From positions 1 through 41,022 of the IMG/VR virus record IMGVR_UViG_3300002772_000001: DNA of 41,022 bases. One strand, given 5' to 3'. The stretch's first letter is position 1. Each line of letters opens with the position of its first letter. The position numbers and the translations under genes were made by a program. The DNA is from a virus. The notes beneath the pieces are model-generated. The model worked only from the letters and a program-made list of their open reading frames with translations, ran no database searches and was not told the origin of the DNA. Positions 25,049-41,006 of this stretch are shown one piece after another.

Positions 25049-25345
25049 CTATTTCGTGCAAGCCATCCTTGAAAACCTTGCACTATCTTTGTTGCCATCA
25101 CTGGCAAGGTAATAGACGTTCCTCCGACTCACTCCGAGTCGCTCCGCCGTAACATCCGGCCCCAGCGTCGGCAGCAACTTCGCCGCCTCAATAGCTTTGC
25201 GGTCACGGTTTGCGCCCTCGTCAATGGCTATCATGTTATTTATGGTTTCCGCGCTGAACTTCTCGCAGCGAGCAACTGACCAGCCGCAATCGTGCAGCAG
25301 CTCGGCCAGCTCACCCAACTTCGCATGTGCGGCTTGGCTAATCAT
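25049..25345 (-). CDS. HTH-containing hypothetical protein (98 aa); terminates at TAG
   Basis: C-terminal HTH-like TAERLGVSRRNVYYL. The stop codon is TAG (25049-25051). Confidence 0.55.
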   Translation of the reverse strand: MISQAAHAKLGELAELLHDCGWSVARCEKFSAETINNMIAIDEGANRDRKAIEAAKLLPTLGPDVTAERLGVSRRNVYYLASDGNKDSARFSRMACTK

Positions 25346-25348
25346 GTT

Positions 25349-25747
25349 TCACCCCTTCAAGTAATCAAGGATCGTAGCTTTCGCCGCTTCCCAACCTTTG
25401 CAGACCGCCACGCGATAGCCCGCATTGCCGAGGAATAGGTGGCACTCGGCTTGTTCGGGATCGACGCGGCCACCTTTAACTCGCTTGAGTTCGACATATA
25501 GGCCATGAAATCCGCCGCGCGATACAGGCAGGCACAGATCGGGAATCCCTTTCTTCACGCCCGACTTCTTCAACTTCACCGCCGTCACGATATTCACGAA
25601 CGCGCCGTTCGGGATCGAATGAAGCCAGCGCAGCTCGGGATACTTCTTGCTTGCCAGTTCCGCCCATTCCATCAGCGCCGATTGCTCGTCGTACTCGGTC
25701 GGTACGGGAGGTTTCGGCGCAGTGAGCTTGAAGGGCTTGGCGGTCAT
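25349..25747 (-). CDS. VRR-NUC domain nuclease (132 aa)
   Basis: Motifs EQSALMEW, PNG, KKGIPDL, YVELK and PEQ..C..FL...GY.V.VC. Confidence 0.7.
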   Translation of the reverse strand: MTAKPFKLTAPKPPVPTEYDEQSALMEWAELASKKYPELRWLHSIPNGAFVNIVTAVKLKKSGVKKGIPDLCLPVSRGGFHGLYVELKRVKGGRVDPEQAECHLFLGNAGYRVAVCKGWEAAKATILDYLKG

Positions 25748-25992
25748 GCCGCCTTCTTCTCATAGCTGCGCAGCGAATACAGGAACACCTTATCCTTCCC
25801 TGACCGCTTCATCTCTGGCGGCAAATAGAACGGGCGGCGCGTTAGCTTCTTCGTCTTGACGAGATAGCACAGCGTCCCCGTAACGCGATTGGCTGTGACA
25901 CCAAGCTCAAGGACAAAATCATCGACGGTTCCCGGACCTTCTGCGAACACGTCAAGGATTTTCTTGCAAACAGAGTTTTCGTGGGTCGGCAT
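25744..25992 (-). CDS. Hypothetical (winged-helix-like) protein (82 aa)
   Basis: ATG 25992 overlaps the upstream TGA. The longer listed ORF start is implausible. Confidence 0.5.
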   Translation of the reverse strand: MPTHENSVCKKILDVFAEGPGTVDDFVLELGVTANRVTGTLCYLVKTKKLTRRPFYLPPEMKRSGKDKVFLYSLRSYEKKAA

Positions 25993-26279
25993 CACTTCAC
26001 CTTCAGCACAAGTTGTCCGGCGTCGATCAGCCGGGAATGGGTTAGGACGATGGCGCGATCCATCTGCGCGCGGCGTTCGGCGCGGTCTAGGAGCCGCCCG
26101 TTGTCGATTTCGTGATGGCACTCGGGGCAGAGTGCAGCGGTCATATACGCGGCGGATTTCTGACCCATTCCGCGATCCTGATTGGAATGGGCGACCTGCA
26201 CTCCCCACTTGCCGCATAGGCTGCATGTTTCCAGGCTGGCGACGGCAGCGAACCACTTACGGTCGGCGGCAGTGGTCAT
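25992..26279 (-). CDS. YbcO/DUF1364-like putative nuclease (95 aa)
   Basis: Pattern C..CGKWG.QVAH...G.G.K......ALCPECHHEID. Confidence 0.5.
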   Translation of the reverse strand: MTTAADRKWFAAVASLETCSLCGKWGVQVAHSNQDRGMGQKSAAYMTAALCPECHHEIDNGRLLDRAERRAQMDRAIVLTHSRLIDAGQLVLKVK

Positions 26280-26500
26280 GCAGCTAGCTCATTGCAATTA
26301 GGACATGGGATTCCGCGCTTGGCCTTAGTTACCGAGATGGCAAGCCAGTCGGTTACGTGATCGCAAATCAGACAATTCATGCGAACGGTGGCTAGTCCAT
26401 CATCGTAATCATCGTGGGACGCATCGCAGACATGCATTAGCCTTTTAGGCTTGGCGCGCGGTGGCTTAAGTTCGACAAACATATCGGGTAGTCGATTCAT
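26276..26500 (-). CDS. Zinc-ribbon hypothetical protein (74 aa)
   Basis: CLICDH...CPNCN. ATGA couplings at both ends. Confidence 0.5.
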   Translation of the reverse strand: MNRLPDMFVELKPPRAKPKRLMHVCDASHDDYDDGLATVRMNCLICDHVTDWLAISVTKAKRGIPCPNCNELAA

Positions 26501-26925
26501 GCGACCCTCCTCTGCTCACCCTCATACGGCTCAGGGATATACGCACCACATTGCGCAGCGGCACGGAACACGACGGTCTCAAGCAGTTCGCCGAACGCCT
26601 TGGCATCCATGACATTCCGCTTGCCGTTTTCATCGCGTGTCGTGGTGCGGAATGGCACGCTCTCGACGCCCTGCGGATTACATGGCGTCTTAGGGCACTT
26701 GCGGTCTACCCATCCGAAAAATTGTCCACACACCCACTGGTGTATGTCTTCCACCGTGTAGCCCATCGCCTCGGCAATCGGGCCGTAGCACACGCCGAAC
26801 AGGTAAGCGTTCTGCGGATGCGTGCGCTCTTTCTTCCAAGCCTTCGCCGATACTTCCAGCGGCAGCTTGAGCGTGTGCAGGAACGTAACCCAGCGGGATA
26901 GCTCGGCAGGATTGGTGATCTTCAT
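26497..26925 (-). CDS. NinB-like recombination mediator (about 142 aa)
   Basis: Size, nin-region position and a THPQNAYLFGV..GPIAE-type motif. Start taken as ATG 26925. Confidence 0.45.
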   Translation of the reverse strand: MKITNPAELSRWVTFLHTLKLPLEVSAKAWKKERTHPQNAYLFGVCYGPIAEAMGYTVEDIHQWVCGQFFGWVDRKCPKTPCNPQGVESVPFRTTTRDENGKRNVMDAKAFGELLETVVFRAAAQCGAYIPEPYEGEQRRVA

Positions 26926-27105
26926 AACGGCCACCCGCACGCCTTAGCCAGTCCGCGATAGACCGGCATCGCCTCAGCCAGCGCCATCATTTCCGATGCC
27001 TTAGCGCGCCAGTGCGACCGATGCGTGCCAGATTGGTCGTAATGGCCTGCACCGTTGCGCGAGTCGCAGATTTCACGGGCGAGGGATTCGAGTTTTCGAA
27101 GTTGG

Positions 27106-27945
27106 TCATGCGATCAGCCTCTGTTGTGCCTGCATCGCATGCGCGGGCTCGTTAAACCAAAGAGACTCCACGCGCTCCCTCGCTCCATCCGCGTGAGCTG
27201 CACGATCAACGCGGAACCAGTCGCCATATAATCCGTTATAGAGTTCGGACGGATAGCCGGAAAGAACGACCATTCCCTTAAGCCGCTTAAGTCCATCTGC
27301 CAAAGTTACGTGCTGCTCGTCAGAAAGCTCATGCTTATAAGACTTTCGCTTAAGGTCATGATTGACTTTCACGGATCTGGTTGAATGCACATATGGCGGA
27401 TCAACGTAATGCAGTGTTTCTTCACCGTCCTGATGCACCATCACTGCCATTGCATCGCGTTGCTCGATTACCACGCCGCGCAGCCTTTCGATTAACGGCT
27501 CAACTGCGTCAGCATAGTTAGCCCAGTCATGCGCCGGCGTCGTTCCACTGCGACTGCTATTAGCTCGGAATCCAGATAGCTCACCACATGCAGCGGCGCT
27601 GCCGAACCCCTGAAAGCTGCGCAGAATTGTTCGCCGAGCCTGCTCGATGGGATCGTTAGATGGAACATATGCGGCAACGAACTCAGCCCTACTGAAGGGC
27701 GTAAGACGTATTGCTTCATGCAGCGCGGCGCCGTGGTCACGCATAACACGAAACACGTTGACTATCTCGCCATCCAGGTCGTTGTAGACCTCTGCATAGC
27801 TGCGCGGCTTCCTGAGTAATACCGAGCCACCACCGCCGAATGGTTCAACATAAACCCGGTGCGGCGGAAGGTTGGTGATTATCCACGGGGCCAACTTCCA
27901 TTTCCCGCCGTGATAACGAACAATTGGTCTTGTGAGAGATTTCAC
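27106..27945 (-). CDS. dam: N6-adenine DNA methyltransferase (Dam/D12 class)
   Basis: YHGGKW near the N-terminus. Motif I EPFGGGGSV. Motif IV VDPPY. GTG 27945 overlaps the upstream TGA. Confidence 0.85.
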   Translation of the reverse strand: MKSLTRPIVRYHGGKWKLAPWIITNLPPHRVYVEPFGGGGSVLLRKPRSYAEVYNDLDGEIVNVFRVMRDHGAALHEAIRLTPFSRAEFVAAYVPSNDPIEQARRTILRSFQGFGSAAACGELSGFRANSSRSGTTPAHDWANYADAVEPLIERLRGVVIEQRDAMAVMVHQDGEETLHYVDPPYVHSTRSVKVNHDLKRKSYKHELSDEQHVTLADGLKRLKGMVVLSGYPSELYNGLYGDWFRVDRAAHADGARERVESLWFNEPAHAMQAQQRLIA

Positions 27946-28166
27946 CGTCCACCCCTCCGCTTGGCATCCATCTCGTTCGCATTCTTCAGCGCCCGGTCAA
28001 TCCGAAACTGCATGCGCAGCCACGTCTGCACGACTTCGCGGCAATTGCCGGTTGTGCAATCGGAGTGTTCGCAGCGTTCCGGCAACGCCTTGGTCTGATC
28101 GGCCCATTGGCTTGCGGGCAGCTTGGAAATGCGCTGCGCCTCAGTGAGGCAATAGCTGGCAGTCAT
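27942..28166 (-). CDS. Hypothetical protein (74 aa)
   Basis: Complete ORF, coupled to its neighbours. Confidence 0.5.
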   Translation of the reverse strand: MTASYCLTEAQRISKLPASQWADQTKALPERCEHSDCTTGNCREVVQTWLRMQFRIDRALKNANEMDAKRRGGR

Positions 28167-28360
28167 GCCGACAGCCTCATTTCGGGACGGCCCATGCGGC
28201 GCATGCGCACCGTGTGAAGCTCGCGCACTTCGCCACTGGCGCGCAGTTCGTCAGCGGCGTGACGGATACCGCTCACGCTGCATCCGAGAAAGCGGGATAG
28301 CTCAGGGATGGTCAATGGCGTGACGCGCAGGGCGAATAGAATCCGGTCGCGGATGTTCAT
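28163..28360 (-). CDS. Small winged-helix DNA-binding-like protein (65 aa)
   Basis: Contains LTIPELSRFLGCSVSGIRHAADEL. Confidence 0.45.
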   Translation of the reverse strand: MNIRDRILFALRVTPLTIPELSRFLGCSVSGIRHAADELRASGEVRELHTVRMRRMGRPEMRLSA

Positions 28361-28929
28361 GCCGCAGCCTCCGGGTCAGGCTCGCGCAAAATGTCGCGCA
28401 CTCGGTCAAGGTGTTCTTTCACCACCTCGGGGCTGGCTGGCTTGATCGGCGTCACGGTCTTTTCGAGCAGCGCCACGGGTGCCACCGGAAGCTCGCCGCC
28501 GCCAATGACATATTCGACCGCAAGACCGTAGGCATCCTGCAACATCCGCTCAGCCTGCTTGCCCTGCGCGTTGCGGTAGGCGTAAACGTTCAAGTTCGAC
28601 CAGACCAGGCGCGAGAATCGGCTTACCTCGATCCTTTCCTCGCCGCCAGCTAGCCACTTGCGCTGGGTAAGCAGCTTGAACACTTCCGAATTGACCTTTG
28701 CCGGCGTCGGGATTTCATGACACATGGCGCAGAAGCTGGTTGAACTCGGCGGCCAGTTGCTGCCGCGTAACGTGTCGGCACGGAATCCTGCGGCCAACTG
28801 TTCGGCGGTCAAACCCGACAACGTGCTACGCCATTCTGCGGCGGCAATGCCGGACGGGGAATCACTGTACTGACTCACCCAGGCGTTGCCGTATCGGCTC
28901 CCCATCCGCATCCATACCTGCTCGATCAT
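28357..28929 (-). CDS. Replication-associated hypothetical protein (start uncertain)
   Basis: Lies downstream of the DUF1376 gene. Candidate starts are ATG 28929, 28911 or 29034. Overlaps the 3' end of the DUF1376 gene. Confidence 0.5.
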   Translation of the reverse strand: MIEQVWMRMGSRYGNAWVSQYSDSPSGIAAAEWRSTLSGLTAEQLAAGFRADTLRGSNWPPSSTSFCAMCHEIPTPAKVNSEVFKLLTQRKWLAGGEERIEVSRFSRLVWSNLNVYAYRNAQGKQAERMLQDAYGLAVEYVIGGGELPVAPVALLEKTVTPIKPASPEVVKEHLDRVRDILREPDPEAAA

Positions 28930-29716
28930 CGGAGCCGATAGAGGCTTGCGCTGCTCGTTCGGCGCGGCCAGCGTGGATGTTTTGCTCGATCCGCTCGACG
29001 GCGGAGAGCTTGCGGCTTGGCTGAATGTTTGCATTTCGTGTCTCCGGCTTGATTTCAAAAAGGCCCGTCCACCCGCGCTCGATCGACTGCTCAATAACGG
29101 CGGTCGGGTCGTGGCCCTTGGTTCGCAGCTTGGTCAGTGTCGCCAGCGAGAGTTCGCGGGCTTTGTACGTCCAGCCTTTGCGCTGGTTGCGGAAGGTGTG
29201 CCAGTCAGCCCATGCGGATTCGGTCAACCAGTCGGGCAGCGTCAGCGCAGGTGGCTTGCCGCCCTTTTGTTTTTGATCTTGTTCTTTATGGTGTATGGGG
29301 TCTGGTGTATGGGGAGCTTTCGATCCGGTTACGTCTTGGGTTTCATTCCGCTTAACCGGATCAGAACCCAGTGGGTTTCCATCTGGTTTCTTTGGACGTC
29401 CACCTTTTCCCCCGTTTGACCGCGCCGACTCAATCCTGATGCGGGCTTTGGCGATATCCGACTCAGCGCGGTCGTTATGGCGAAGCCCGTCAACCTGAGA
29501 AACTGGGAAAAACATATCGGCCACAACAATCACGGCTGATTGCTCGTCAGGCGTCATCGCGCGGGCAATACGGAAAAGGGTTGGGTTATCGTTGGGTATC
29601 GGCTTTTCGGTGCTGTAATAGGTCATCAGTAGCAGCAAGAAAGCGCCATGCTGGGCGAGCGTCAGGGCCGCTGTGTCGCGTTGGTAATCGCCCGGATACA
29701 GTTCGAAATAGTTCAT
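28862..29716 (-). CDS. DUF1376 (YdaU-like) replication initiation/primosome-type protein
   Basis: N-terminus MNYFELYPGDYQRDTAALTL.QHGAFLLLLM.YY is characteristic of the family. ATG 29716 overlaps the upstream TGA. Confidence 0.7.
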   Translation of the reverse strand: MNYFELYPGDYQRDTAALTLAQHGAFLLLLMTYYSTEKPIPNDNPTLFRIARAMTPDEQSAVIVVADMFFPVSQVDGLRHNDRAESDIAKARIRIESARSNGGKGGRPKKPDGNPLGSDPVKRNETQDVTGSKAPHTPDPIHHKEQDQKQKGGKPPALTLPDWLTESAWADWHTFRNQRKGWTYKARELSLATLTKLRTKGHDPTAVIEQSIERGWTGLFEIKPETRNANIQPSRKLSAVERIEQNIHAGRAERAAQASIGSDDRAGMDADGEPIRQRLGESVQ

Positions 29717-29850
29717 GCCGCGCTGACCAAAACAAGCCCCACCAGCCGCAACCACGCATGCATCGCGGCATCCATATCCCTTGCGTCTAGGGCGCGCACG
29801 TAGACGTTCCCAGCTACCCTCTTGGCGGCTTGGTGGAATAGGTTGGTCAT
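29713..29850 (-). CDS. Small hypothetical protein (45 aa)
   Basis: ATGA couplings at both ends (29847-29850 and 29713-29716). Confidence 0.3.
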   Translation of the reverse strand: MTNLFHQAAKRVAGNVYVRALDARDMDAAMHAWLRLVGLVLVSAA

Positions 29851-30101
29851 GCCGCAGACCTCGCGACGTACTGGCACTGGCGGATGAAGTCGCGGTAGTC
29901 CATGTCGCCTTTCATGCGGTTGCAGGCGCGGCAGGCCGGAAGCATGTTGCTGATACCATGACCACCGCCCTTGGCTTGCGGGCGAATGTGGTCAAGCGTC
30001 ATATCGGCGCGGGTAAGCCGGGCACCGCAGTAATGACACTCTACGAATGAACGCCCAGCAAGGATCAGCGTCCGGCGTACATGCTTCTGCTTGGAGTTCA
30101 T
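29847..30101 (-). CDS. Small HNH endonuclease (84 aa)
   Basis: CHYCG...LDHIRP...GG......N..PACRACN. Confidence 0.75.
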   Translation of the reverse strand: MNSKQKHVRRTLILAGRSFVECHYCGARLTRADMTLDHIRPQAKGGGHGISNMLPACRACNRMKGDMDYRDFIRQCQYVARSAA

Positions 30102-30394
30102 ACCGCCTCCCGCAAATGCTCAGGCACCCACAGGTCGCGCATGGATTCCCAGCTAACTAGGGTGTTGGAGTCGGTGAGGGGTTCGAGCTGGTCGGGAGAC
30201 CAATTTCTCCAGCATTCACCGTCATGAGACTCTGGCGAAATATCCAAGCCGTAGCCGATGCAATTCAGGCCCGTATCCGCATTCACGCCTTCACGGACAC
30301 TAATGATCACCCCGGCCTTGCCAACGTCTTTACGGCCGAGTTCGGAGTTCGCCCACTTAATCCGCACCCTCTGCCCAATGTAGAGGGTAGTCAT
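30098..30394 (-). CDS. Hypothetical protein (98 aa)
   Basis: Complete ORF with ATGA couplings. Confidence 0.5.
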   Translation of the reverse strand: MTTLYIGQRVRIKWANSELGRKDVGKAGVIISVREGVNADTGLNCIGYGLDISPESHDGECWRNWSPDQLEPLTDSNTLVSWESMRDLWVPEHLREAV

Positions 30395-30915
30395 GCCGCC
30401 CTCCGGAGCATCAGCGCGGCGTTTTCAGCCTCAAGAACGGCGATGCGTGTAAGTAGGGCCGGGATCGTCTCTTTAACTACCGGAATGCACTCATAGGCTT
30501 TCTTCGCCACTACGGCGTCATCAAGAGACGCATAAACCCCCAAGTAGACCCTCTTGCCATCACGCGCAGACGAATAGACGACAAACTTCCCGCTCCGCTT
30601 GTTGCGGGTGATGTTTTCCACACCTGTATTACTCCGGGGAGAGGTGTGCGTGTTTCTCGAATTCACCGAATACGTCACTGAGCGAAGATTGCAGCGACGG
30701 TTGTCCAGCGTGTTCCCGTTGATGTGGTCAACGACAAGCCCATGCTCACCACACAGGAGGCGATGCATCCAATTACGAGTGCCGTCGATTTGTCCGACCG
30801 CGTAGACGTAACCATTGCGGGTGGTATTCGCTAGCCAGCGAAACTGCGACAAATACTCGAAGTCCTCATCATCAACGAGGACTGAGAAACCCTTGTTCAT
30901 TTGGATGGTTTTCAT
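30391..30915 (-). CDS. HNH endonuclease with AP2-type DNA-binding domain (174 aa)
   Basis: HRLL......VDHINGNTLDNRRCNLR, followed by an AP2-like GV......GKF......DGKRVYLGVY.S.DDA..A. Lower GC than its flanks. Confidence 0.75.
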   Translation of the reverse strand: MKTIQMNKGFSVLVDDEDFEYLSQFRWLANTTRNGYVYAVGQIDGTRNWMHRLLCGEHGLVVDHINGNTLDNRRCNLRSVTYSVNSRNTHTSPRSNTGVENITRNKRSGKFVVYSSARDGKRVYLGVYASLDDAVVAKKAYECIPVVKETIPALLTRIAVLEAENAALMLRRAA

Positions 30916-31301
30916 GCGACAGCCTGCAGCGCATTCGTGCGCTCAAGCCGCTGCATGGTCTGCAACAACTGTGCTTGTTGGGCGTGGATCGTCTTGAGTA
31001 GCTCAGCCTGCTCATCAGCGGGAGCCTTCGCTGCCGGACGGTGCAGGCTCAGTTCGTCGCAGGCGTGATAGATCGGATCGAGACTGCTGGTTTCCTTGCA
31101 GATCAGGATGACCTCAGCAAAGGACAGTTTTTCGTCCTTGGACTCGTTCAAGCAGTTCTTCAGGCGGGCGTAGGCGCTATCCATCTTCATGGCAGGCCAC
31201 AGCGCGATGGCGACCTGTTTGAAGGTCTTGCCGCTGGACGTTATCGCGGCATTGATCGCCTCAGCGTCGGTGTCGTACCAGAGGGGGGATTGCTTGTTCA
31301 C
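30912..31301 (-). CDS. CII-like regulatory protein (CP76-type)
   Basis: GTG 31301 with AGGAG 7 nt upstream. Motif ARLKNCLNESKDEKLSFAEVILICKETSSLDPIYHA resembles the phage CII (CP76) family, from memory. Second gene of the early operon. Confidence 0.45.
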   Translation of the reverse strand: MNKQSPLWYDTDAEAINAAITSSGKTFKQVAIALWPAMKMDSAYARLKNCLNESKDEKLSFAEVILICKETSSLDPIYHACDELSLHRPAAKAPADEQAELLKTIHAQQAQLLQTMQRLERTNALQAVA

Positions 31302-31387
31302 TAGCAGCTCCTAGAAATTAGGTGTGCGTAGGGGTGTGCTGTTGAGGCCAAATAAAAACCATGACCACGACGAATCGCAGACATGGC

Positions 31388-31633: not shown

Positions 31634-31642
31634 ACCGCTAGA

Positions 31643-31707
31643 TTACCCCTACGGTATATCTATTGCAAGCGGCAATTTACCTGTGCGGACATTTACCCGA
31701 TTGGTAG
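31643..31707. promoter_or_regulatory. Operator cluster (OR-like): TTACC-N5-GGTA(T/G) sites
   Basis: TTACCCCTACGGTAT at 31643-31657 and TTACCCGATTGGTAG at 31693-31707, plus a weaker site TTACCTGTGCGGACA at 31677-31691. All lie between the divergent cro-like and CI-like starts. Confidence 0.55.
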
Positions 31708-31719
31708 CGCTCACTCACC

Positions 31720-32244
31720 ATGAACGTCATGCTGACCATCGACGAAATCAGGTATCGGAATGCGCGCCTGCTGGTGCGCGGGATCGAGGAATCCACAGGG
31801 AAGTCCGGCGACCGCTCGGGCGCGATGACGGCGTTCGCCGCCAAGATGGGAAAGTCGCCAGCCCAAGCCAGTCACTTTGCCGGAGAGAAACCATCCAAGG
31901 CCATTGGCGATCAGATCGCCCGAGAGATTGAGGTGGCCTTCAACAAGGAACGCGGCTGGATGGACTGGCCGCAGTGGGAGATGGCTGCAGCGGAATCTTG
32001 CAAGATGAGACCGGATGCGTCCAAGCTGCAGGAAGCTCACAATGTGCTGCGTCGCCTGTTTTTAGGGAATGGTGGCGAGTATGAGTACATGCGAGATTCT
32101 GACCTGCTGGCCGAAGCGTATGACCTTGACGCAGTGGACCCAGTGGGCCGAACCATCGCCCTGATGGCAAGGGTGGCTCAACGCGTCAAGATCCAGGAGA
32201 AAGCGCATGGCGGAAAAGATCAAGCTAGTAAGCGTGGGAGGTAG
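31720..32244 (+). CDS. CI-like repressor (HTH, no S24 peptidase domain recognised); terminates at TAG
   Basis: HTH MTAFAAKMGKSPAQASHFAG...IGDQIAREIEVAF..ERGWMDW. No RBS before ATG 31720, so the mRNA may be leaderless. The stop codon is TAG (32242-32244). Confidence 0.65.
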   Translation: MNVMLTIDEIRYRNARLLVRGIEESTGKSGDRSGAMTAFAAKMGKSPAQASHFAGEKPSKAIGDQIAREIEVAFNKERGWMDWPQWEMAAAESCKMRPDASKLQEAHNVLRRLFLGNGGEYEYMRDSDLLAEAYDLDAVDPVGRTIALMARVAQRVKIQEKAHGGKDQASKRGR

Positions 32245-32463: not shown

Positions 32464-32481
32464 ATGCCACGACGATTTATT

Positions 32482-33303: not shown

Positions 33304-33614
33304 ACCCCCTGCGCAACCCCGAATTCCACACCCTCTCAGATCGCCAGCTTCAGGCCCGTCTTGAGCGGGACCTTGCAGCACGCAAGGTGGCTCGTGACGC
33401 GATTGACCAACGCATCGCCACGAAACGCAGTCAGTTCCGCGCTGATTCTCGCCTGCCGTTCCGGCCAGTGACAGTGATTGACGCGCCAGTTGTGCCGAAG
33501 CCCGTTCCTGCACTGATCCGCTGGCCCGTCATCGTTGTGTTCGCGCTGACCATGACGTTTGCCGTGTGGAAGTTTGCAGCGTGGGTTCTGCCGGTGGCCT
33601 GGGGGGGTGTATGA
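33300..33614 (+). CDS. Hypothetical protein with C-terminal TM segment (104 aa)
   Basis: ATG 33300 overlaps the upstream TGA (ATGA). C-terminal WPVIVVFALTMTFAVWKFAAWVL. Confidence 0.5.
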   Translation: MNPLRNPEFHTLSDRQLQARLERDLAARKVARDAIDQRIATKRSQFRADSRLPFRPVTVIDAPVVPKPVPALIRWPVIVVFALTMTFAVWKFAAWVLPVAWGGV

Positions 33615-33997
33615 ACCTCGCCCAAGCCCAATCACGCTACGACGCCATGCTTCCGCCCGAGCAGGACGACAGCGCATTCCAGCGGCGGATCGCGCAGATT
33701 GATGGCGACCCGGATCGCACCTTTGTCGGTGAGCTGCTGTTCGACGATCTGCCTTACGTGCCATCTGCTGCTCACGCTGACGATGACGCGATCGAACAAC
33801 GCGATGCGGCGGTTAAGTCGGCCATGGCCGTCACAGCTTACGCCATCGACGCGTTTCCGATCATCGAGCGGCTGACTGCTGGGCTTCCACTGACGCCGTA
33901 CCAGTCCGCATTGATCCCGCGATTCTTCCGCGCACTGAAGCCGTGGATCGAAAAGGAACCCATCGTGATTCGGCAGGCTGCGGAGGATGGATTGTGA
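33611..33997 (+). CDS. Hypothetical protein (128 aa)
   Basis: ATG 33611 overlaps the upstream TGA. Stop TGA 33995-33997. Confidence 0.5.
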   Translation: MNLAQAQSRYDAMLPPEQDDSAFQRRIAQIDGDPDRTFVGELLFDDLPYVPSAAHADDDAIEQRDAAVKSAMAVTAYAIDAFPIIERLTAGLPLTPYQSALIPRFFRALKPWIEKEPIVIRQAAEDGL

Positions 33998-34275
33998 GCG
34001 AGTAGATCAAAGATGGTGGTCCGGCGTTTTCTTGCGGGACTGACGAAAGGGCTTTGCTCATTGCAAAGCAAGAAGGGCGCGTTCTGGCCGGCAACTCTCC
34101 CGCCGCATTGCATAGCCGTGGCATGACCCTTCGCGATTATTTCGCGGCGAAGGCGATGCAGGGGTTTTCTGCCAGTCCAAACGAATTGTTCACTGACGCA
34201 ACATTCAGCAGGATTGCCGAGTACGCATACAGTCAGGCCGACGCCATGCTTGCTGCCCGCGAGGCCAAGTTATGA
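33994..34275 (+). CDS. Conserved small phage protein (93 aa; in-frame TAG at codon 4)
   Basis: GTG 33994 overlaps the upstream TGA (GTGA). TAG at 34003-34005. Read-through gives MSE[TAG]IKDGGPAF...GMTLRDYFAAKAMQG. There is no in-frame ATG/GTG/TTG between the TAG and the IKDGGPAF segment. Confidence 0.55.
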
Positions 34276-34356
34276 CCACGCCCGAATCATCCCCATCGTC
34301 GCCGGATTGCCGGCGAATGATCCTGATTTTCTTCCTCCTGCTTTGGAGTAGATCGC

Positions 34357-35148
34357 ATGAAATTTGAAATTCGTAACCGCTGGACTGGTGCCGTTCAATA
34401 CAGCTGCGAACTTTCCGCAGAAATGGCCGGCAAATCGTATGGCCTACAGCTTGGGTTTGTCGTGAAAAGTGCCATTGCGAGCGGCAGCAACCTGCGCGGC
34501 AGCAACCTGCGCGGCAGCTACCTGCGCGACAGCAACCTGCTCGGCAGCGACCTGAGCGGCAGCGACCTGCGCGACAGCAACCTGAGCGGCAGCGACCTGC
34601 GCGGCAGCGACCTGCGCGGCAGCAACCTGCGCGGCAGCTACCTGCGCGACAGCAACCTGCGCGGCAGCGACCTGCGCGGCAGCGACCTGCGCGGCAGCGA
34701 CCTGCGCGGCAGCAACCTGCGCGGCAGCGACCTGCGCGGCAGCGACCTGCGCGGCAGCAACCTGAGCGGCAGCTACCTGCTCGGCAGCAACCTGAGCGGC
34801 AGCAACCTGAGCGGCAGCAACCTGCGATCCATCCGAGCCGACTTCTACGATGTGCTGTCTTGGGCGCCCGCAGAGGTTCCGGCGCTGATTGATGCACTCA
34901 GGTCAGGCAGCGTTGATGGTTCGACATACACTGGCACTTGTGCCTGTCTCGTTGGCACGCTGGCGAATGCACGCGGCATCGAATATCAGTCGCTTGAACA
35001 TGACTCAGGCCGACCCATCGAAGTGTTTTTCGCCGCCATTCGTACCGGCGATACACCAGAAACGAATCAGGTATCAGCTATCGCGCTTGGCTGGGCCGAA
35101 TCGTGGCTGGCGAACATGCGTGAAGCGTTCGTGCCGAAAGCGGCATAA
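34357..35148 (+). CDS. Pentapeptide-repeat protein (263 aa)
   Basis: About 23 consecutive pentapeptides (S/G)(N/D/Y)L(R/S/L)(G/D), followed by a non-repeat C-terminal domain of about 105 aa. Stop TAA. Confidence 0.8.
   Translation: MKFEIRNRWTGAVQYSCELSAEMAGKSYGLQLGFVVKSAIASGSNLRGSNLRGSYLRDSNLLGSDLSGSDLRDSNLSGSDLRGSDLRGSNLRGSYLRDSNLRGSDLRGSDLRGSDLRGSNLRGSDLRGSDLRGSNLSGSYLLGSNLSGSNLSGSNLRSIRADFYDVLSWAPAEVPALIDALRSGSVDGSTYTGTCACLVGTLANARGIEYQSLEHDSGRPIEVFFAAIRTGDTPETNQVSAIALGWAESWLANMREAFVPKAA
34483..34826 (+). repeat. 15-bp in-frame tandem repeat, about 23 copies (ggcagc[ag]acctg[ca]gc)
   Basis: Direct reading of the sequence. This repeat encodes the pentapeptide array. Confidence 0.9.
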
Positions 35149-35456
35149 CCCAACAACCGCGAACTGCGCGCACCTCCTGGGGAGTTCCGGCCCCTAACGC
35201 AGTACCGGAGCAGCGGCACTCTCTGCGGCATGGATGCCAAGAGTGCACACCAAAGCAGCTAGTCGGCGGGCAGGCCGATCCGTAGAGACGAAAAGCTGGC
35301 TGCTTTTGTGTTCGTTTTCACCGGGGAAGTTATCGGAGTGCATGGGTGATCAGCGCCACTGCATTCGCCAGCTGAGGCCGTTACATAGTCTGGACGCGAT
35401 AACGCCCCACCCCATTCCAACACCGTGCCGGGCGGAATCCCGGTAGAGGATTTGAT

Positions 35457-36023
35457 ATGAACGATGAGACGAAAACTCATTACCGCAAGGCGTTCGATAG
35501 CCCGTATCTGAGCAGCGCCGATCTGGTCGAGCCGACACCGCTCACGGTCGCGTATGTCCGTCTTGAGCCGGACCACACCAAGAAAACGAAAGACCTGTTC
35601 AACACGGCGCATTTCGTCGAGAAGGAATTGCGGCCCGGTGAAAAGTTGAAGCCGATGATTCTCAATGCGACGAACAGCAAACAGATGAAGAACCTGACCG
35701 GCACGCCGTTCATCGAGGAATGGGTCAACGTGCGCGTCACGGTCTACGTCGATCCGAACGTGAAGTTCGGCAAGGAGTCGGTCGAGGGTTTGCGGATCAG
35801 TAGCAAGGCGCCGGCACCGCCCGTTGACGTGAACGCGTGGATCGGCAAGGTCAATGCCTGCGACACATCCGATGGCCTGCAGGATACGTGGAAACTCGGC
35901 GGCAATGCGTTGCGTGAATCAGGCAACCGCGATGGTTACGCGAGGCTCAAAGATGCCGTCACGGCTAGGCTTGAATCGATCAAAGCCAAGGCTGCCGAGG
36001 TCGCTGTGGAATCTGAAGCATGA
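35457..36023 (+). CDS. Hypothetical protein (188 aa) upstream of the exonuclease (possible recombination partner)
   Basis: ATG 35457. Stop overlaps the exonuclease start (ATGA). The partner role is positional only. Confidence 0.45.
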   Translation: MNDETKTHYRKAFDSPYLSSADLVEPTPLTVAYVRLEPDHTKKTKDLFNTAHFVEKELRPGEKLKPMILNATNSKQMKNLTGTPFIEEWVNVRVTVYVDPNVKFGKESVEGLRISSKAPAPPVDVNAWIGKVNACDTSDGLQDTWKLGGNALRESGNRDGYARLKDAVTARLESIKAKAAEVAVESEA

Positions 36024-36787
36024 AGATCATCCATTGCGATCAGGGCAGTGATGAATGGATTGCGGCGCGGTCCGGCTGCATCACGGCAAGCATGTTTGGC
36101 GTAGCGCGTAGCCGCGTCGGCTGCCTGACCGATCAGCAGCAGGCTTTTGTTTACGCCGTACGTGGTGGCGTGCCGGAAAAGGAAGCCGCGAAGATTGCCG
36201 GGTACAAGACAACGCCGCGCGCCACCGGCATCACGCGCGCACTGTCTGGACTGCCCGTAGGCGAATGGTCCGACGCATCCAAGGACTACGCGTTCCGTCT
36301 CGCCATTGAGCGGATCAGCGGAGAGCCGCTGGACGAAGGTTTCCAGACATGGGCTATGGCTCGCGGCCATGAGCTTGAGCCGGAAGCGCGCATGGAACAC
36401 GAAATGCAGACCGGCTTAATCGTTCAGGAGGCGGGGTTCATCACAACTGATGATGACCTGTTCGGCGCGAGTGCTGACGGCCTGATTGGCGAGGACGGCG
36501 GTGCGGAATACAAGTGTTTCCTCAACCCGTCCAAGCTGCGCCAATTCCATATCGACGGTGATGCCAGCGACATATTCGACCAGGCGCAAGGCTGCATGTG
36601 GATCACTGGCCGCAAGTGGTGGCACATCGGACTGTACTGCCCCGCGTTGGCGCCAGTCGGAAAACAGTTGTGGTGGAAAGAGTTTGCGCGCGACGACAAC
36701 TACATCAACGCGATGGAACAAGACCTGTGGGAGTTCGCGCAGCTTGTGGCGTCGTATGAATCGACACTCAAACAGAAGGCGGCATGA
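36020..36787 (+). CDS. YqaJ-type (lambda Exo-like) recombination exonuclease
   Basis: N-terminus MKIIHCDQGSDEWIAARSGCITASMFG is characteristic of the family. Confidence 0.75.
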   Translation: MKIIHCDQGSDEWIAARSGCITASMFGVARSRVGCLTDQQQAFVYAVRGGVPEKEAAKIAGYKTTPRATGITRALSGLPVGEWSDASKDYAFRLAIERISGEPLDEGFQTWAMARGHELEPEARMEHEMQTGLIVQEAGFITTDDDLFGASADGLIGEDGGAEYKCFLNPSKLRQFHIDGDASDIFDQAQGCMWITGRKWWHIGLYCPALAPVGKQLWWKEFARDDNYINAMEQDLWEFAQLVASYESTLKQKAA

Positions 36788-36788
36788 C

Positions 36789-37166
36789 ATGGCAGAGGCA
36801 CAGTTCATCAATGGTTTGACGTTCAAGGCTCCGAACGAACGAGCGCCGGAATACGTGAAGGCGAAAGGCTCGATCAAGCGCGCGGATTTGATTGCGACGC
36901 TGCAAGGCATGGGCGGCGACTGGATCAACTTCGACGTAAAGGTGTCGCAGAACGGCAAGTGGTACGCCGCTGTCGATCCGTGGAAGCCGAATAGCGAGAA
37001 GTCGGAGCGTGCGGCACGGGGCCAGGAGCGTTCCTCGCCGAGTCGGCAGGATCACAACGATTACATCGCGAACGGAACTGGCGATAAGCACGGCGATGCG
37101 AGCAATGGGTTTGCAGATGACTCAGACATACCCTTTGCGCCGATCCCGCTGCGGCAGCTCTGGTAA
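36789..37166 (+). CDS. SSB-like single-strand DNA-binding protein (125 aa)
   Basis: ATG 36789. The acidic C-terminal tip DDSDIPF matches the canonical SSB tail. The OB-like N-domain is unverified. Confidence 0.5.
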   Translation: MAEAQFINGLTFKAPNERAPEYVKAKGSIKRADLIATLQGMGGDWINFDVKVSQNGKWYAAVDPWKPNSEKSERAARGQERSSPSRQDHNDYIANGTGDKHGDASNGFADDSDIPFAPIPLRQLW

Positions 37167-37197
37167 GCAGCCTAACCACCACGAAGAGGATTGAGGG

Positions 37198-37392
37198 ATG
37201 AACTGGGACGATTTCCGACAGGCGTTCAGCACCGCTCGCCATACGATGAATCAAGCCGATAACGTCGCCAACGACATGGCGGACATGCTTGATGGGCGGC
37301 TGCGCAAGGTAAGTGGTTTCCGGCTGGCTAAGCTCAAGCGTCAGCTGCGCGACTTCAACATTCACACTGGCGAATGGAAGGAACCATCATGA
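37198..37392 (+). CDS. Hypothetical protein (64 aa)
   Basis: Complete ORF with GAGG upstream. Confidence 0.5.
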   Translation: MNWDDFRQAFSTARHTMNQADNVANDMADMLDGRLRKVSGFRLAKLKRQLRDFNIHTGEWKEPS

Positions 37393-37706
37393 CCGCCCTG
37401 CGCGAACTTGCCAAGTCCTTGGCCGAGAAAGAGAAGGACTACGCGACCCATGAGCGTAGATTCTCGGAAGAACTCATCGCCATCCTCGACGCCGATGATG
37501 ATGTTCGGCGTGAAGTTGAATGTCGCCTGTGGGATACGCAGTGGTTAAACATCGTCAACCACGAAAATTGTTACAGGGACTTCGACAAAGAAACCGCTAT
37601 TGCCGATGCGGTTCGCCGTACCGAGGATGCGATGGCAAGAAATTTCCGTGATGACAGATGGCCGCCACGCAAAGACGCCATCCAAGGAGAAACCTATGGA
37701 CGCTAA
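37389..37706 (+). CDS. Hypothetical protein (105 aa)
   Basis: ATG 37389 overlaps the upstream TGA. Confidence 0.5.
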   Translation: MTALRELAKSLAEKEKDYATHERRFSEELIAILDADDDVRREVECRLWDTQWLNIVNHENCYRDFDKETAIADAVRRTEDAMARNFRDDRWPPRKDAIQGETYGR

Positions 37707-38460
37707 GTACACGGTTGAGGAAATGCGGGAGATGGCGAATAAGCAGCGGGAAACAATGCCAATGACCGCCGCCATGCTAACCGCCTACGCCAACCTCCTC
37801 GCCGAGATCGAGCGGGCGAAGGCGGGGGTGACGGACGAGGCTTATATGAAGGCTAGCGAAGCTATCGCGGCGCGTTTTTCCAGTGACTTTTTCGACGAAC
37901 GTATGGTTCTAGAGTGTGGAAGAGCCGCCCTAGAATCCGTCGCCCACCTGTTGCCGAGGGGTGAGGTTGGGGTGGATGAGAGTGCGGTGCCGGTGGCTTG
38001 GATGCGTCGAACGATTCGCCACAAGCGCATAGGCGGCAGGGAAGATGGTGAGCGAGTGATGAGCGCGTCTAAGGTCTATCCAGATGACGAACCGCTATTC
38101 ACCCACCCGCCAGCACAGGCGGCGCAGGTGGATGCTGATCTTTACAAGTCAGCGTGCGACAGCGTCGAAGAATGGAAGGCTCGTGCGCTCAAGGCTGAGG
38201 AAGTTTCTGACCGGCTGATGGCTGAAATTAACCAGATGACCGGACCGACCTTCATGGGTGAGCCGGTATTGTCGAAAGCGCCAACGCAGGTAACTCGCGC
38301 CGAGGTTGAGGCGTTTCTTGTCGCCTACCACGCCGAAGTATGGGCAGCTGGCGAAGGTAACGGCACCGCTTACGACCAAGCGGGCGAAAAGCTCGCAAAG
38401 GCGTTCCTCGCAAGGTTCAACACTACCGAGCCAGTGGCGCACGAGAAGGATAAGCCGTGA
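37696..38460 (+). CDS. Hypothetical protein (254 aa)
   Basis: ATG 37696 with AGGAGA upstream. Confidence 0.55.
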   Translation: MDAKYTVEEMREMANKQRETMPMTAAMLTAYANLLAEIERAKAGVTDEAYMKASEAIAARFSSDFFDERMVLECGRAALESVAHLLPRGEVGVDESAVPVAWMRRTIRHKRIGGREDGERVMSASKVYPDDEPLFTHPPAQAAQVDADLYKSACDSVEEWKARALKAEEVSDRLMAEINQMTGPTFMGEPVLSKAPTQVTRAEVEAFLVAYHAEVWAAGEGNGTAYDQAGEKLAKAFLARFNTTEPVAHEKDKP

Positions 38461-38990
38461 AAACGTGCAGCATTGACGACCTCAAAGCGAATTTCCGCTT
38501 CGATGCTGAGACGGGGATTATCACCCGTATGCTCACAGAAAAATCGTTCAAGGCAGGGGATAGGTCCGGCTCTAGGACGAGTCACGGCTATCTAATGCTC
38601 AAGTTTCACGAAGTCCGATGCCTCGCACATAGAGCAGCGTTCGCCATGTATTACGGGTGCTGGCCCATCGGTCAGATAGACCACATCAACGGCGATCGTA
38701 CTGACAACCGAATCTCTAATTTGCGCGAAGTATCGAATTCGCAGAACCAGATGAATGCCGGACTGAATTCGCGCAATACCAGTGGCTGCAAAGGCATCTG
38801 GTGGTCAAAGGATGAAAGCCGCTGGCGTGCCCACATCATCGTGGACAAGAAGAAACTCTATCTTGGCTCTTACAAGACGCCTGACGAAGCCGCGCACGCC
38901 TACAACAAAGCCGCGATCCGATTGCACGGTGAATTCGCACGGCTAAACCCGATAGGTACCGCCGCACCCACCCCGGAGACGAAGGGATGA
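38457..38990 (+). CDS. HNH endonuclease with AP2-type domain (177 aa), paralogous in architecture to 30391-30915
   Basis: LAHRAAFAMYYG.....QIDHINGDRTDNRISNLR, then GIWWSKDESRWRAHI...KK.YLGSYKTPDEAAHAYN.AA. GTGA coupling. Confidence 0.75.
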   Translation: MKTCSIDDLKANFRFDAETGIITRMLTEKSFKAGDRSGSRTSHGYLMLKFHEVRCLAHRAAFAMYYGCWPIGQIDHINGDRTDNRISNLREVSNSQNQMNAGLNSRNTSGCKGIWWSKDESRWRAHIIVDKKKLYLGSYKTPDEAAHAYNKAAIRLHGEFARLNPIGTAAPTPETKG

Positions 38991-39340
38991 GCGCCGAACT
39001 GTGCAGGGCGGAGTTTGAGAAGTGGGTACAAACCACGAGCGCATGGCGCGCTTGCAAGCAGCGAAACAAACCCATGTACTTACGCCAGAGCATGGACGGC
39101 AGCTACAACGATTTCCGGGTGAATGATCGTTGGTTCGCTTATAAGGCCGCGTGGAACACCCGCGCCAACGACGTGGACATCGAAAGCCTACGCCAACTAG
39201 TGATTAAGTGGGAATCTCGAGCAGCAGAGGAAAGACGATATAGCGGCGAATATTACTCGGGCCGATCTCAAGCGTATGACGCGTGTAGTGAAGAGCTCGC
39301 CGACAAGCTCACCGCCGCGCTACCGGAGTCCAAGCCATGA
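38987..39340 (+). CDS. Hypothetical protein (117 aa)
   Basis: ATGA couplings at both ends. Confidence 0.5.
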   Translation: MSAELCRAEFEKWVQTTSAWRACKQRNKPMYLRQSMDGSYNDFRVNDRWFAYKAAWNTRANDVDIESLRQLVIKWESRAAEERRYSGEYYSGRSQAYDACSEELADKLTAALPESKP

Positions 39341-39600
39341 CGCTGTCACGGGAAGTTCAGGATGCGCTAAAAGAATTGAATACGCGCATCGACGCACAAA
39401 ATGAAAGGGTGCGCACCAAGGACGCAGAGATAGCGAGCCTTATCGACCAGCGCGACATGCTGTTACGTCAGTACAACGAAGCCGAATCCCGCCTCGCTGC
39501 GGCGAATGCGCTGCTTCGAAACGTAATGAACGAAGGATGTTCCATGCGTTCAACCCACGATGCCATCCAAACCCACCTGCAAGGAGCTGGCGATGAATGA
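39337..39600 (+). CDS. Coiled-coil hypothetical protein (87 aa)
   Basis: Complete ORF. Confidence 0.5.
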   Translation: MTLSREVQDALKELNTRIDAQNERVRTKDAEIASLIDQRDMLLRQYNEAESRLAAANALLRNVMNEGCSMRSTHDAIQTHLQGAGDE

Positions 39601-39820
39601 GTGGATGCCAATTGAGACGGCGCCGATTGGGGTAGTCGTGGACACGATCATCCGTGATGCGGATGGAGATCGAAATCATCAGACGCTGAAAGCAAGCCAG
39701 CGCGACCCGAATTGCCGCGTTATGTGGTGGCTCCCTGATGGCTCGATGTACGTCTACTTCACGCCAACACACTGGCGACCAGTGCCGTCAACAGCCCGAT
39801 GCACACCGGAGCAGCCATAG
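39593..39820 (+). CDS. DUF551-like protein (75 aa); ends with tandem TAG-TGA
   Basis: MNEWMPIETAP...THWRPVP. Stop TAG 39818-39820 is immediately followed in frame by TGA 39821-39823. Confidence 0.55.
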   Translation: MNEWMPIETAPIGVVVDTIIRDADGDRNHQTLKASQRDPNCRVMWWLPDGSMYVYFTPTHWRPVPSTARCTPEQP

Positions 39821-40134
39821 TGAGCCAGAATCCGGCAAGCGACCAACCATGGCTAACCGTCCCCGAAGCGGCCAAGTATTGCCGCTGTTCCGTCCGCGCG
39901 TTCCTCAACATGCGCTTGCCCGCCAATGACGCGGGAGGCCGCAAGGTCTACCATCGGCAGTCACTTGATGCAGCGATCACGGCCCGGACATGGCGAAACT
40001 CTACAAGCGCGGCCCCTGCTACTACCTTGACTGGTCAGACGGCGGCGAACGATTCCGGCGCAGTCTCGGGAAGATTGACAAGCAGGCGGCTCAGGCCATT
40101 CAAGCCGAGAAAGAAGCAGAGCTGCGCGGGCTGA
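39820..40134 (+). CDS. xis: Excisionase-like HTH protein (start GTG 39820 or ATG 39799; 3' end overlaps int)
   Basis: Motif WLTVPEAAKYCRCSVRAFLNMRLP....GRKVYHRQSLDAAI is typical of excisionase/MerR-type HTH proteins. Lies immediately upstream of int. Confidence 0.5.
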   Translation: MSQNPASDQPWLTVPEAAKYCRCSVRAFLNMRLPANDAGGRKVYHRQSLDAAITARTWRNSTSAAPATTLTGQTAANDSGAVSGRLTSRRLRPFKPRKKQSCAG

Positions 40135-41006
40135 TAACGCCGACGCGCGGCGCGATAGTCGCACAGATCATCGCCGACTATATGGCGTGGTATGAACATG
40201 CCAGACCGACCACGTTCAAGCGCGCCGGGTACACGTTCAAGCCGTTCCTGTTGAAATTCGGCAACCATGCCGCCGAGGGGCTAGACCCCGGACAGGTCGA
40301 AACGTGGGAGCTTGGCCGCGAGGCGCGAGGCAGCGCCAACAAGGCGGTCAGGCTGGCAAAAGCGGCATTCAACCGTGCCGTCCGCCTAGGTGCGATCCGC
40401 ATCAATCCGATGGCCCGCGTGAAGTCCACAACACCACCCATCAGCCGCGCACCGGACTACTACCGGCAAGCCCAGCTTAAAGCCCTCTACGGCTGCGAAC
40501 GCGGCCCGCTGTGGCGATTCATGGTCAACACCGGACTGCGACGCGCCGAGATGGCGAAAGCGTGCAGAACTGACATACGCGACGGCCAGATCATTGTGGA
40601 GAGTACGGCCAAGGGGCGCACAAAGTCGGGGAAGTGGCGAGCCGTGCCGCTGAATAGCGAGGCGCTGATGGCGCTGAAGAGGCTTGGGGATGATCGTCTG
40701 GCGCTGTGCCATCCCGACACACTGGGGGATTGGTTCGCGCGGGATCGTGACGCACTGGGCTTGCCCGGCTCACTTCACTGGACGCGGCACACGTTCTGCA
40801 CTGGCCTCGTGCAGCAGGGTGTGAGCTTGTACGATGTGCAACGCCTTGCGGGACACAGCTCGATCAAGGTGACGGAGCAGTATGCGCGACACGCGCCTGG
40901 TCACGGTGTAGAAGCGGTCGGAAAACTTGCGCGTTGGCACACTTCACGGCACAGTAAAAATAAAACTTCAATAAAATCAAAGCGCCCTCGTAGCTCAGTT
41001 GGATAG
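39990..41006 (+). CDS. int: Tyrosine integrase; stop codon is TAG inside the att core
   Basis: C-terminal catalytic signature LHWTRHTFCTGLVQQGVSLYDVQRLAGHSSIKVTEQYARH (HxxR ... H ... Y). The ORF runs into the tRNA-Arg repeat and stops at TAG 41004-41006. Confidence 0.9.
   Translation: MAKLYKRGPCYYLDWSDGGERFRRSLGKIDKQAAQAIQAEKEAELRGLITPTRGAIVAQIIADYMAWYEHARPTTFKRAGYTFKPFLLKFGNHAAEGLDPGQVETWELGREARGSANKAVRLAKAAFNRAVRLGAIRINPMARVKSTTPPISRAPDYYRQAQLKALYGCERGPLWRFMVNTGLRRAEMAKACRTDIRDGQIIVESTAKGRTKSGKWRAVPLNSEALMALKRLGDDRLALCHPDTLGDWFARDRDALGLPGSLHWTRHTFCTGLVQQGVSLYDVQRLAGHSSIKVTEQYARHAPGHGVEAVGKLARWHTSRHSKNKTSIKSKRPRSSVG

Follow-up and report, generated by a model that had tools for sequence, protein, structure and literature searches.

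We describe here a complete lambdoid, SU10-like temperate podophage that is integrated in a tRNA-Arg(CCU) gene and occupies positions 1 to 41,022 of IMG/VR virus record IMGVR_UViG_3300002772_000001 (hereafter the window, that is, the whole 41,022-nucleotide (nt) stretch that was analysed). Its 18-kb morphogenesis operon, from the small terminase to the tailspike, is written with TAG as glutamine (Gln), and elsewhere in the genome TAG is a stop. A preliminary description of this DNA had proposed that lysogeny and early genes use TAG as a terminator and that virion genes use it as a sense codon; two meanings of TAG do coexist within this compact 41-kb temperate genome, and the boundary between them coincides with a phage-encoded tRNA with the anticodon CUA (tRNA(CUA)).

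The virion block (438-18404, minus strand) carries 37 in-frame TAGs across 16 of its 18 genes and not a single in-frame TAA or TGA. The periodicity of GC content at third codon positions (GC3) is continuous over every late TAG, profile hidden Markov model (HMM) alignments from Pfam and PHROG bridge the TAGs of the terminase, portal, capsid, adaptor and other genes, and taking TAG as sense lifts the coding density from 0.63 to 0.92 in the late block and leaves it unchanged in the early block. Gene callers that assume the standard code break the portal gene into four pieces and the capsid gene into two. These observations bear out the earlier claim that the virion genes need TAG as a sense codon.

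Reading down the operon, the first TAG (18261-18263) lies in the gene for a small terminase-like protein (phrog_11043; 18138-18404), at a site where a relative has Gln. In the gene for the terminase large subunit (16904-18154), the single TAG is codon 45 and comes after the Walker A motif. The SU10-type portal (14673-16904) has four TAGs, of which the near-terminal one (14688) is sense because the TGA that follows (14673-14675, the true stop) overlaps the ATG start codon of its downstream neighbour as ATGA. TAGs are found at codons 37 and 54 of the scaffolding protein (13100-14026), at codons 28 and 211 of the SU10-type major capsid protein (12119-13090), at codon 29 of the SU10-type adaptor (11127-11777) and at codon 20 of the head-closure or stabiliser protein (phrog_578; 9718-11130). 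The genes for internal and ejected proteins are richest in the codon: five TAGs occur in a DNA-ejection protein (phrog_598; 6899-7918), five in an internal virion protein with a lytic transglycosylase domain (4898-6841) and eight in an internal virion or ejection protein (2862-4901; phrog_5880 aligns over residues 58-504). The tailspike or tail fibre (438-2501; phrog_1171) has two, at codons 66 and 102, and the alignment with phrog_26190 (residues 16-89) runs over the first of them. The five TAGs of the DNA-ejection protein include a TAG-TAG tandem (7862-7867, codons 18-19), the second of which is also TAG in all four recoded relatives aligned there. A 2OG-Fe(II) oxygenase or Asp-Arg hydroxylase-like gene (8093-8674) is one of the two TAG-free late genes, which is not significant given that it has just six Gln codons; its homologues in two relatives do contain a TAG.

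On the other side of the boundary, the 45 open reading frames (ORFs) of the early block (that is, lysogeny, replication and lysis genes) contain no internal TAG in 6674 codons, whereas the late rate predicts about 20 (P(0) = 5e-10). A direct comparison of these 6674 codons with 33 TAGs in 5373 late codons gives Fisher p = 2.5e-12, the late side of this test being the 13 large late genes rather than the full count of 37 TAGs in 18 genes. The genome is thereby divided into a recoded late block and an early block to which the standard code can be applied. Early genes stop at TGA (30), TAA (10) or TAG (5, one of them doubtful), that is, TAG is used at an ordinary frequency and is not avoided as a terminator, and the 13 large late genes stop at TGA (8) or TAA (5), with one stop codon reassigned. 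As TAG is sense in the late genes, these genes cannot end at it; the statement that late genes never do so holds in that all their stops are TGA or TAA, but 18 genes provide no statistical proof of it (0 of 18 versus 5 of 45). The proposed division into early and late genes also needs amendment at one point: virion genes are recoded and lysogeny and replication genes are not, but the lysis genes, which serve a late function, are free of TAG here (none in the endolysin, spanin and protease genes, nor anywhere from holin to spanin), and recoding of lysis genes is thus absent from the window.

Four genes outside the virion block had been named as ending at TAG, and all four do so in frame (at 41004-41006, 32242-32244 and 39818-39820 on the plus strand and at 25049-25051 on the minus strand). 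Judged from the sequence, all four TAGs are genuine terminators. In the putative CI-like repressor gene (31720-32244, plus strand), the coding signature is lost in the 27 codons after the TAG (GC3 of 0.44 versus 0.69 within the gene). It is this base composition that decides the matter; homologues of 188-191 amino acids, whose different basic tail aligns weakly beyond the position of the TAG in the window, are uninformative here. The TAG of the HTH-like early gene (25049-25345, minus strand; 98 amino acids) is followed by a Shine-Dalgarno sequence and the ATG of the next gene, and a 62%-identical homologue has a TGA stop at this very residue, with a Shine-Dalgarno sequence and ATG likewise behind it. 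The DUF551-like ORF (39560-39823, plus strand) ends in tandem stops, TAG at 39818-39820 and TGA at 39821-39823. As for the names given to these genes, 'CI-like' derives from a match to phrog_12107 (E = 2e-8), and 'HTH' (HTH_17, E = 0.017) and 'DUF551-like' (E = 0.78) fall below threshold. A fifth TAG-terminated ORF (35234-35446) is the doubtful one, given that no gene caller predicted it. The loci that were fetched through relatives of the capsid or phosphatase yielded no homologues of the four TAG-terminated proteins.

The tyrosine integrase (39990-41006, plus strand) requires separate comment. Its PHROG alignment stops at residue 327 of 338, and its TAG, within the 39-nt core of the attachment (att) site, falls in the stretch 'GGATAGAGC' that forms the D-loop of the tRNA-Arg(CCU) of the host. 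Although this TAG does act as a stop, it is fixed by the sequence of the host tRNA and is therefore not evidence of a chosen coding strategy. Overstated, too, was the assertion that the four genes are interpretable only if TAG is a stop: read-through would add 1 amino acid to the DUF551-like protein, 27 to CI and 25 to the integrase (in the prophage), and would fuse the HTH-like protein to the next ORF, and none of these outcomes is demonstrably lethal.

The candidate decoder is a suppressor tRNA with the anticodon CUA (18500-18570, minus strand; 71 nt, predicted by ARAGORN), which lies directly upstream of the recoded block and has an encoded CCA. Its acceptor end (5' UGGGGCG, 3' CGCCCCC-G-CCA) has an unpaired U1·C72, G2:C71, G3:C70 and G73. 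The acceptor identity elements of Escherichia coli glutaminyl-tRNA synthetase (GlnRS) are an unpaired or weak 1:72 pair, G2:C71, G3:C70 and G73, and supE is the classical amber suppressor tRNA-Gln; the phage tRNA resembles both in its CUA anticodon and acceptor end, and differs from supE in its truncated D-arm (at most one to three weak pairs, with a 5-nt loop). Comparison with relatives points to the same amino acid. Gln is enriched 4.0-fold at the positions of the window TAGs in non-recoded relatives (23.5% versus a background of 5.8%), and close recoded relatives have TAG (10), CAG (10) or CAA (2) at these sites and nothing else. We thus find support, from comparative data, for TAG being read as Gln.

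The surroundings of the tRNA bear on when it may be made. A small ORF (18480-18650, minus strand) opens with 26 conserved codons (MNGKG...HWDAIF), the last of which directly abuts the 5' end of the tRNA, and the frame of the ORF extends through the tRNA; the same ORF precedes the tRNA in four relatives (L001, L014, L029 and L063), with the pattern M-N/S-G-K-G ... W-D-R/A-I-F shared by the window and these relatives. This arrangement suggests that the tRNA was inserted at a constant site, either within the ORF or behind it. A promoter and terminator scan of 17900-22600 revealed nothing above shuffled expectation and no site that would serve the tRNA. Given that the tRNA lies flush against a coding ORF and has no promoter-like site of its own, it is probably processed from the late transcript, which makes late-only expression plausible. 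Rfam searches detected no match in the whole window at gathering thresholds, and at E <= 10 around the tRNA returned insignificant tRNA-Sec and tmRNA matches and no ribozyme. The annotated ORFs of the window include no aminoacyl-tRNA synthetase gene, no antagonist of release factor 1 (RF1) and no RF2 or other release-factor gene.

The partition extends beyond this genome. Capsid-based searches retrieved about 55 related loci, approximately 15 of which have in-frame TAGs as the sole interruption of their late genes; one of these relatives (L001) is a prophage that sits midway along a 448-kb contig from a metagenome-assembled genome of Luteibacter. In seven relatives, a CUA tRNA occupies the same place, upstream of the terminase genes (for example, at 4572-4665 in L001 and L015, 4230-4323 in L029, 4427-4501 in L008, 3826-3900 in L053 and 4110-4184 in L014). 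In the five relatives for which early regions were available, replication and other early genes are TAG-free and lysis and virion genes contain TAGs (lysis genes are recoded in c379, c192, c162, L062 and L063), and the same partition is seen in Luteibacter relatives and in soil viral contigs. On this comparative basis, the early/late partition of TAG is a conserved property of the clade, with an exact boundary that varies. The CUA tRNAs at this locus have unrelated sequences and are 75 nt long, with canonical folds, or 94 nt long, with a long variable arm, and all have an unpaired 1:72, G73 and an encoded CCA. As the phages with the 94-nt form also have Gln enriched at TAG sites (5.7-fold, versus 1.1-fold for serine (Ser)), the common acceptor end on unrelated backbones suggests that the tRNA may have been replaced repeatedly, converging on GlnRS identity.

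The TAGs of the late genes are concentrated near the starts of these genes. The first 60 codons hold 16 of the 37 TAGs versus 46 of the 368 CAG and CAA codons (Fisher p = 1.5e-5; Mann-Whitney p = 9e-6), a TAG has been met by codon 60 in 13 of the 18 late genes and by codon 110 in 16, and the number of TAG-bearing genes (16 of 18) exceeds the 11.6 expected (p = 0.002). Misplaced start codons do not account for the N-terminal TAGs, which are covered by HMM alignments and by relatives (for example, codon 45 of the terminase follows the Walker A motif). The N-termini of late proteins are no less conserved than the remainder, and the bias is present within both conserved and variable classes of site. 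It recurs in most relatives, mostly at different sites. A case of persistence at one site is codon 20 of the head-closure gene, which is TAG in seven of eight recoded relatives, distant ones included, and encodes Gln in non-recoded relatives. We consider that the clustering favours a translational gate that acts on each gene.

Taking these observations together, we propose a scheme for how the two uses of TAG could coexist, and regard it as probable overall. The tRNA(CUA) would be cut out of the late polycistronic transcript, which, following the lambda paradigm, would be made only after induction. In the lysogen and during the early phase, host RF1 would stop translation at TAG; in the late phase, the tRNA would compete with RF1, and TAG would then mostly be read as Gln. 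Genes that must work without the tRNA (those for the repressor, the integrase, recombination and replication, to which this phage adds its lysis genes) have no internal TAG and retain TAG as an ordinary terminator. Without the tRNA, late genes would yield short and harmless peptides, and the yield of full-length protein would climb steeply with the level of the tRNA, such that a TAG within the first approximately 100 codons may serve as a per-gene gate and noise filter atop transcriptional control. More tentatively, and with a confidence somewhat below even, we suggest that a high-GC lineage of temperate soil proteobacterial phages (with hosts in Rhodanobacter, Luteibacter and relatives) became recoded independently of the low-GC route proposed for gut phages, that selection keeps one or more TAGs near the 5' end of nearly every virion gene, and that interchangeable tRNAs with unrelated backbones would be steered to GlnRS by the unpaired 1:72 and G73. 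A suppressor tRNA freed from the late transcript would then gate every late protein separately, as a threshold filter against the production of capsid, portal and terminase proteins from leaky transcription in the lysogen.

Several observations weigh against this scheme. The lysis genes are not recoded here, and the published role of recoding as a 'lysis timer' is thus inapplicable to this phage. Late-only expression of the tRNA is deduced solely from its position, and the tRNA itself, which has no canonical D-arm, scores too low for the Rfam tRNA models and has a minimum-free-energy fold other than a cloverleaf, such that its function is not assured. Genes with five to eight TAGs would need very efficient suppression against RF1, yet no RF1 antagonist or RF2 gene accompanies them. 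The N-terminal bias could equally stem from a rare-codon ramp or, if suppression is leaky, from selection against late-positioned TAGs. TAG sites also turn over fast in close relatives (10 retained, 12 changed to CAG or CAA), with codon 20 of the head-closure gene as an exception, and overall TAG is retained to a similar extent as CAA, the minor synonymous codon, which is what neutral drift would predict.

This last point leads to an alternative without any regulatory role, namely that once a late-made tRNA had removed the toxicity of TAG, CAG-to-TAG changes drifted passively into those genes that are translated at the same time or later, and TAG was purged elsewhere. Such drift would account for the low share of TAG among the Gln-type codons of late genes (just 8.5%), for the free interchange of TAG and CAG among 91%-identical relatives together with a TAG retention like that of CAA at mid and far divergence, and for the varying extent of recoding, given that lysis genes are recoded in some relatives and not in this phage. 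We nevertheless consider it rather unlikely, as it does not predict an N-terminal bias that survives control for site conservation and is found in most relatives, the spread of TAGs over more genes than chance would give (16 versus 11.6) or the retention of TAG at codon 20 of the head-closure gene in seven of eight recoded relatives. An alternative at the opposite extreme, that TAG is sense throughout the genome (genetic code 15), that its absence from early genes is due to chance and that the four 'stops' are read through, gains some plausibility from the finding that about 40 of the 45 early genes would give near-identical proteins under either code, as in the 'dual-coded' early blocks described with Mgcod. 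The improbability of observing no TAG where about 20 are expected (P(0) = 5e-10), the TGA at the same site in the HTH homologue, the non-coding composition of the CI extension, the ordinary frequency of TAG among early stops (4-5 of 45) and the fact that read-through of the integrase would enter the host tRNA gene make this extremely unlikely.

Two other explanations concern the nature of the TAGs themselves. Were this prophage defective and in decay, its TAGs would represent nonsense mutations and its odd tRNA a degenerate remnant; the tRNA without a proper D-arm that fails the Rfam model, and the lack of a free-phage copy of this exact genome among the contigs examined, would fit this view. 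However, decay should not make TAG the sole interruption (37, versus no TAA, TGA or frameshift), leave coding periodicity intact or produce the same pattern, with intact CUA tRNAs, over a diverged clade that includes non-integrated viral contigs; late-region copies from other samples are moreover 100% identical, and we regard decay as highly unlikely. Insertion of pyrrolysine, or of another residue such as Ser or tyrosine, is in our view practically negligible. ARAGORN did label the tRNA 'tRNA-Pyl', in line with its small D-loop, 3-nt variable loop and G73, but it gave this label to all CUA tRNAs of this study irrespective of structure and size (71, 75 or 94 nt), and no pyl genes (pylS or pylBCD) occur among the annotated ORFs. 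The 94-nt tRNA of some relatives has a long variable arm of the shape typical of Ser tRNAs, yet Gln and not Ser is enriched at the TAG sites of the phages that encode it (as it is overall, 4.0-fold), and TAG and CAG replace each other in close relatives.

Returning to the scheme of a recoded late operon with a late-made tRNA, its logic had been likened to that proposed for recoded gut phages, and this likeness fits the anatomy of the genome but is not new, as a lysogeny switch or late gating has been hypothesized in print (Borges et al., bioRxiv 10.1101/2021.08.26.457843) and code blocks have been described with Mgcod. The phage has the defining features of TAG-to-Gln code-block phages and of recoded prophages such as Garnet and Topaz. 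The latter are TAG-recoded, temperate prophages of approximately 24 kb in gut Prevotella and Oscillospiraceae; they lie beside a host tRNA gene in a standard-code host, their integrase lacks in-frame TAGs and occasionally ends legitimately at TAG, and a two-code switch at lysogeny was proposed for them (Borges et al.). The present phage shares with them the temperate lifestyle, the integration site at a tRNA gene, the standard-code host, the recoded TAG and the integrase free of in-frame TAG. It differs in that 45 of its 63 ORFs are TAG-free, with recoding limited to the morphogenesis operon, and in that its host is a soil gammaproteobacterium of 62-68% GC (phage, 58% GC) rather than a low-GC gut member of the Bacteroidota or Firmicutes. 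The evolutionary route proposed for those phages, from low GC to rare TAG stops, does not fit here, where TAG makes up about 10% of early stops; low GC combined with depletion of the recoded codon as a terminator is not what we find (58% GC; TAG ends 4-5 of the 45 early genes).

The genomes of crAss-like phages are known to be split in this manner: their early block can be read with the standard code, and TAG must be sense in their late block (Ivanova 2014; Yutin 2021, PMC7886860; Mgcod, bioRxiv 10.1101/2022.06.29.495998). In those phages and here, the tRNA(CUA) is placed for expression before or with the recoded genes. The crAss-like phages are virulent, with genomes of approximately 100 kb in which the switch of code is a switch of strand, whereas here the switch occurs on one strand, inside a lambdoid late operon and at the tRNA, and the early block is not fully dual-coded, given the four or five genes that end in TAG. 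In Jade phages, a 'code change module' (tRNA, TrpRS and RF1) precedes recoded lysis genes, and preferential recoding of lysis genes is reported as a convergent feature (Borges et al.). The decoder likewise lies directly upstream of the genes that need it in the present phage, but it is a lone tRNA, with no aminoacyl-tRNA synthetase or release-factor gene found, and the lysis genes lie upstream of it and are unrecoded (unlike those of relatives). Gut phages also have suppressor tRNAs(CUA) that are linked to theta (hepatitis delta virus-like) ribozymes (PMC10879173) and are embedded in a longer transcript that needs processing, as the tRNA of the window probably is; the latter differs in having no ribozyme or Rfam family beside it, even at E <= 10. 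In relatives, the CUA tRNAs also differ from the supE type, having unrelated backbones (including the 94-nt form with a long variable arm) that carry the same acceptor-end features.

In light of these comparisons, the temporal interpretation, by which virion proteins would be truncated in the lysogen and lysogeny proteins would gain C-terminal extensions once the phage is induced, is plausible and published in principle, with timing itself lying beyond what a sequence can demonstrate. Apparently new here are the proteobacterial soil host of a phage at 58% GC and the N-terminal bias of TAG; our literature search, which was limited and thus does not prove absence, found no published description of recoded prophages of Proteobacteria or of such a bias. 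Code switching has so far been argued almost wholly from low-GC gut metagenomic phages that are hard to manipulate, and recoding is evidently not confined to these. A compact 41-kb prophage with a clean boundary at a tRNA, in a host that is kin to culturable aerobic soil bacteria, offers a practical test system (using the phage or a cultured relative), and the N-terminal clustering of TAG provides a falsifiable prediction that separates a regulatory gate from neutral drift.

The window spans a complete prophage from attL to attR, bounded by an exact 39-nt direct repeat (attL core, 1-39; attR core, 40984-41022; both plus strand) whose sequence is that of the 5' part of the tRNA-Arg(CCU) gene of the host. 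In longer metagenomic contigs with an identical integrase, an intact tRNA-Arg(CCU) gene is regenerated at attR, with the repeat as its first 39 nt. A Phage_integrase domain, the att repeat and the regenerated tRNA are together what is expected of a lambdoid temperate phage at a tRNA gene. Beyond attR, the same contigs encode SelO, a TonB-dependent receptor and a pseudouridine synthase at 62-68% GC; read with code 11, the host genes of this flank are unbroken and contain Pfam domains, with a TAG stop in one of nine, and one flanking protein falls in a cluster of at least 90% identity with proteins of Rhodanobacter sp. OK091 and R. umsongensis. As far as these flanking genes indicate, the host is a gammaproteobacterium that resembles Rhodanobacter and has the standard code. 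The Pfam families SU10_portal, SU10_MCP and SU10_adaptor mark the virion module as that of an SU10-type podophage, and a megablast search of INPHARED phages matched neither half of the window.

The layout is lambdoid. A plus-strand operon leads from the CI-like gene (31720) through recombination genes to the integrase, and on the minus strand a cII-like gene (31301) opens an operon that continues with replication genes, the lysis cassette, a single tRNA and the virion genes, down to the tailspike (438). The rightward early operon (22651-31301, minus strand) encodes a replication initiator, helicase loader, methyltransferase, NinB, VRR-NUC, exonuclease, HNH proteins and the cII-like protein; the leftward early operon (32554-39600, plus strand) encodes a DUF7666/collagen-like protein, a pentapeptide-repeat protein, a YqaJ exonuclease, an HNH protein and others; and neither operon contains an internal TAG. 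The same holds for the lysis cassette (18640-22338, minus strand), with its endolysin (21307-21771), trypsin-like protease (19454-20032) and Rz-like spanin (18756-19028).

The presence of a trypsin-like serine protease gene between endolysin and spanins is conserved in relatives, in which this gene contains in-frame TAGs. Look-up of the protease returned solely 100%-identical copies, with no strain-level variation, and an exact-protein look-up of the spanin ORF gave no record. Four genes of the HNH or endonuclease VII type (20603-21325, 29847-30101, 30391-30915 and 38457-38990) are scattered over the early and lysis regions, one of which splits the endolysin from the remaining lysis cassette. 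In the leftward early operon, the pentapeptide-repeat gene (34357-35148, plus strand) contains approximately 30 tandem 15-nt units (34406-34901), and its product may be an anti-defence protein or DNA mimic. A 27-nt tandem repeat (32959-33174, plus strand) lies in the gene for the collagen-like, Ala/Gly/Ser-rich DUF7666 protein (32554-33303), and its copy number varies among prophage copies that are otherwise 99.9-100% identical, with products of 227, 249 or 335 amino acids depending on the sample. Finally, an excisionase-like HTH_17 ORF (39799-40134, plus strand) that stops at TGA overlaps the start of the integrase gene by approximately 145 nt in another frame.

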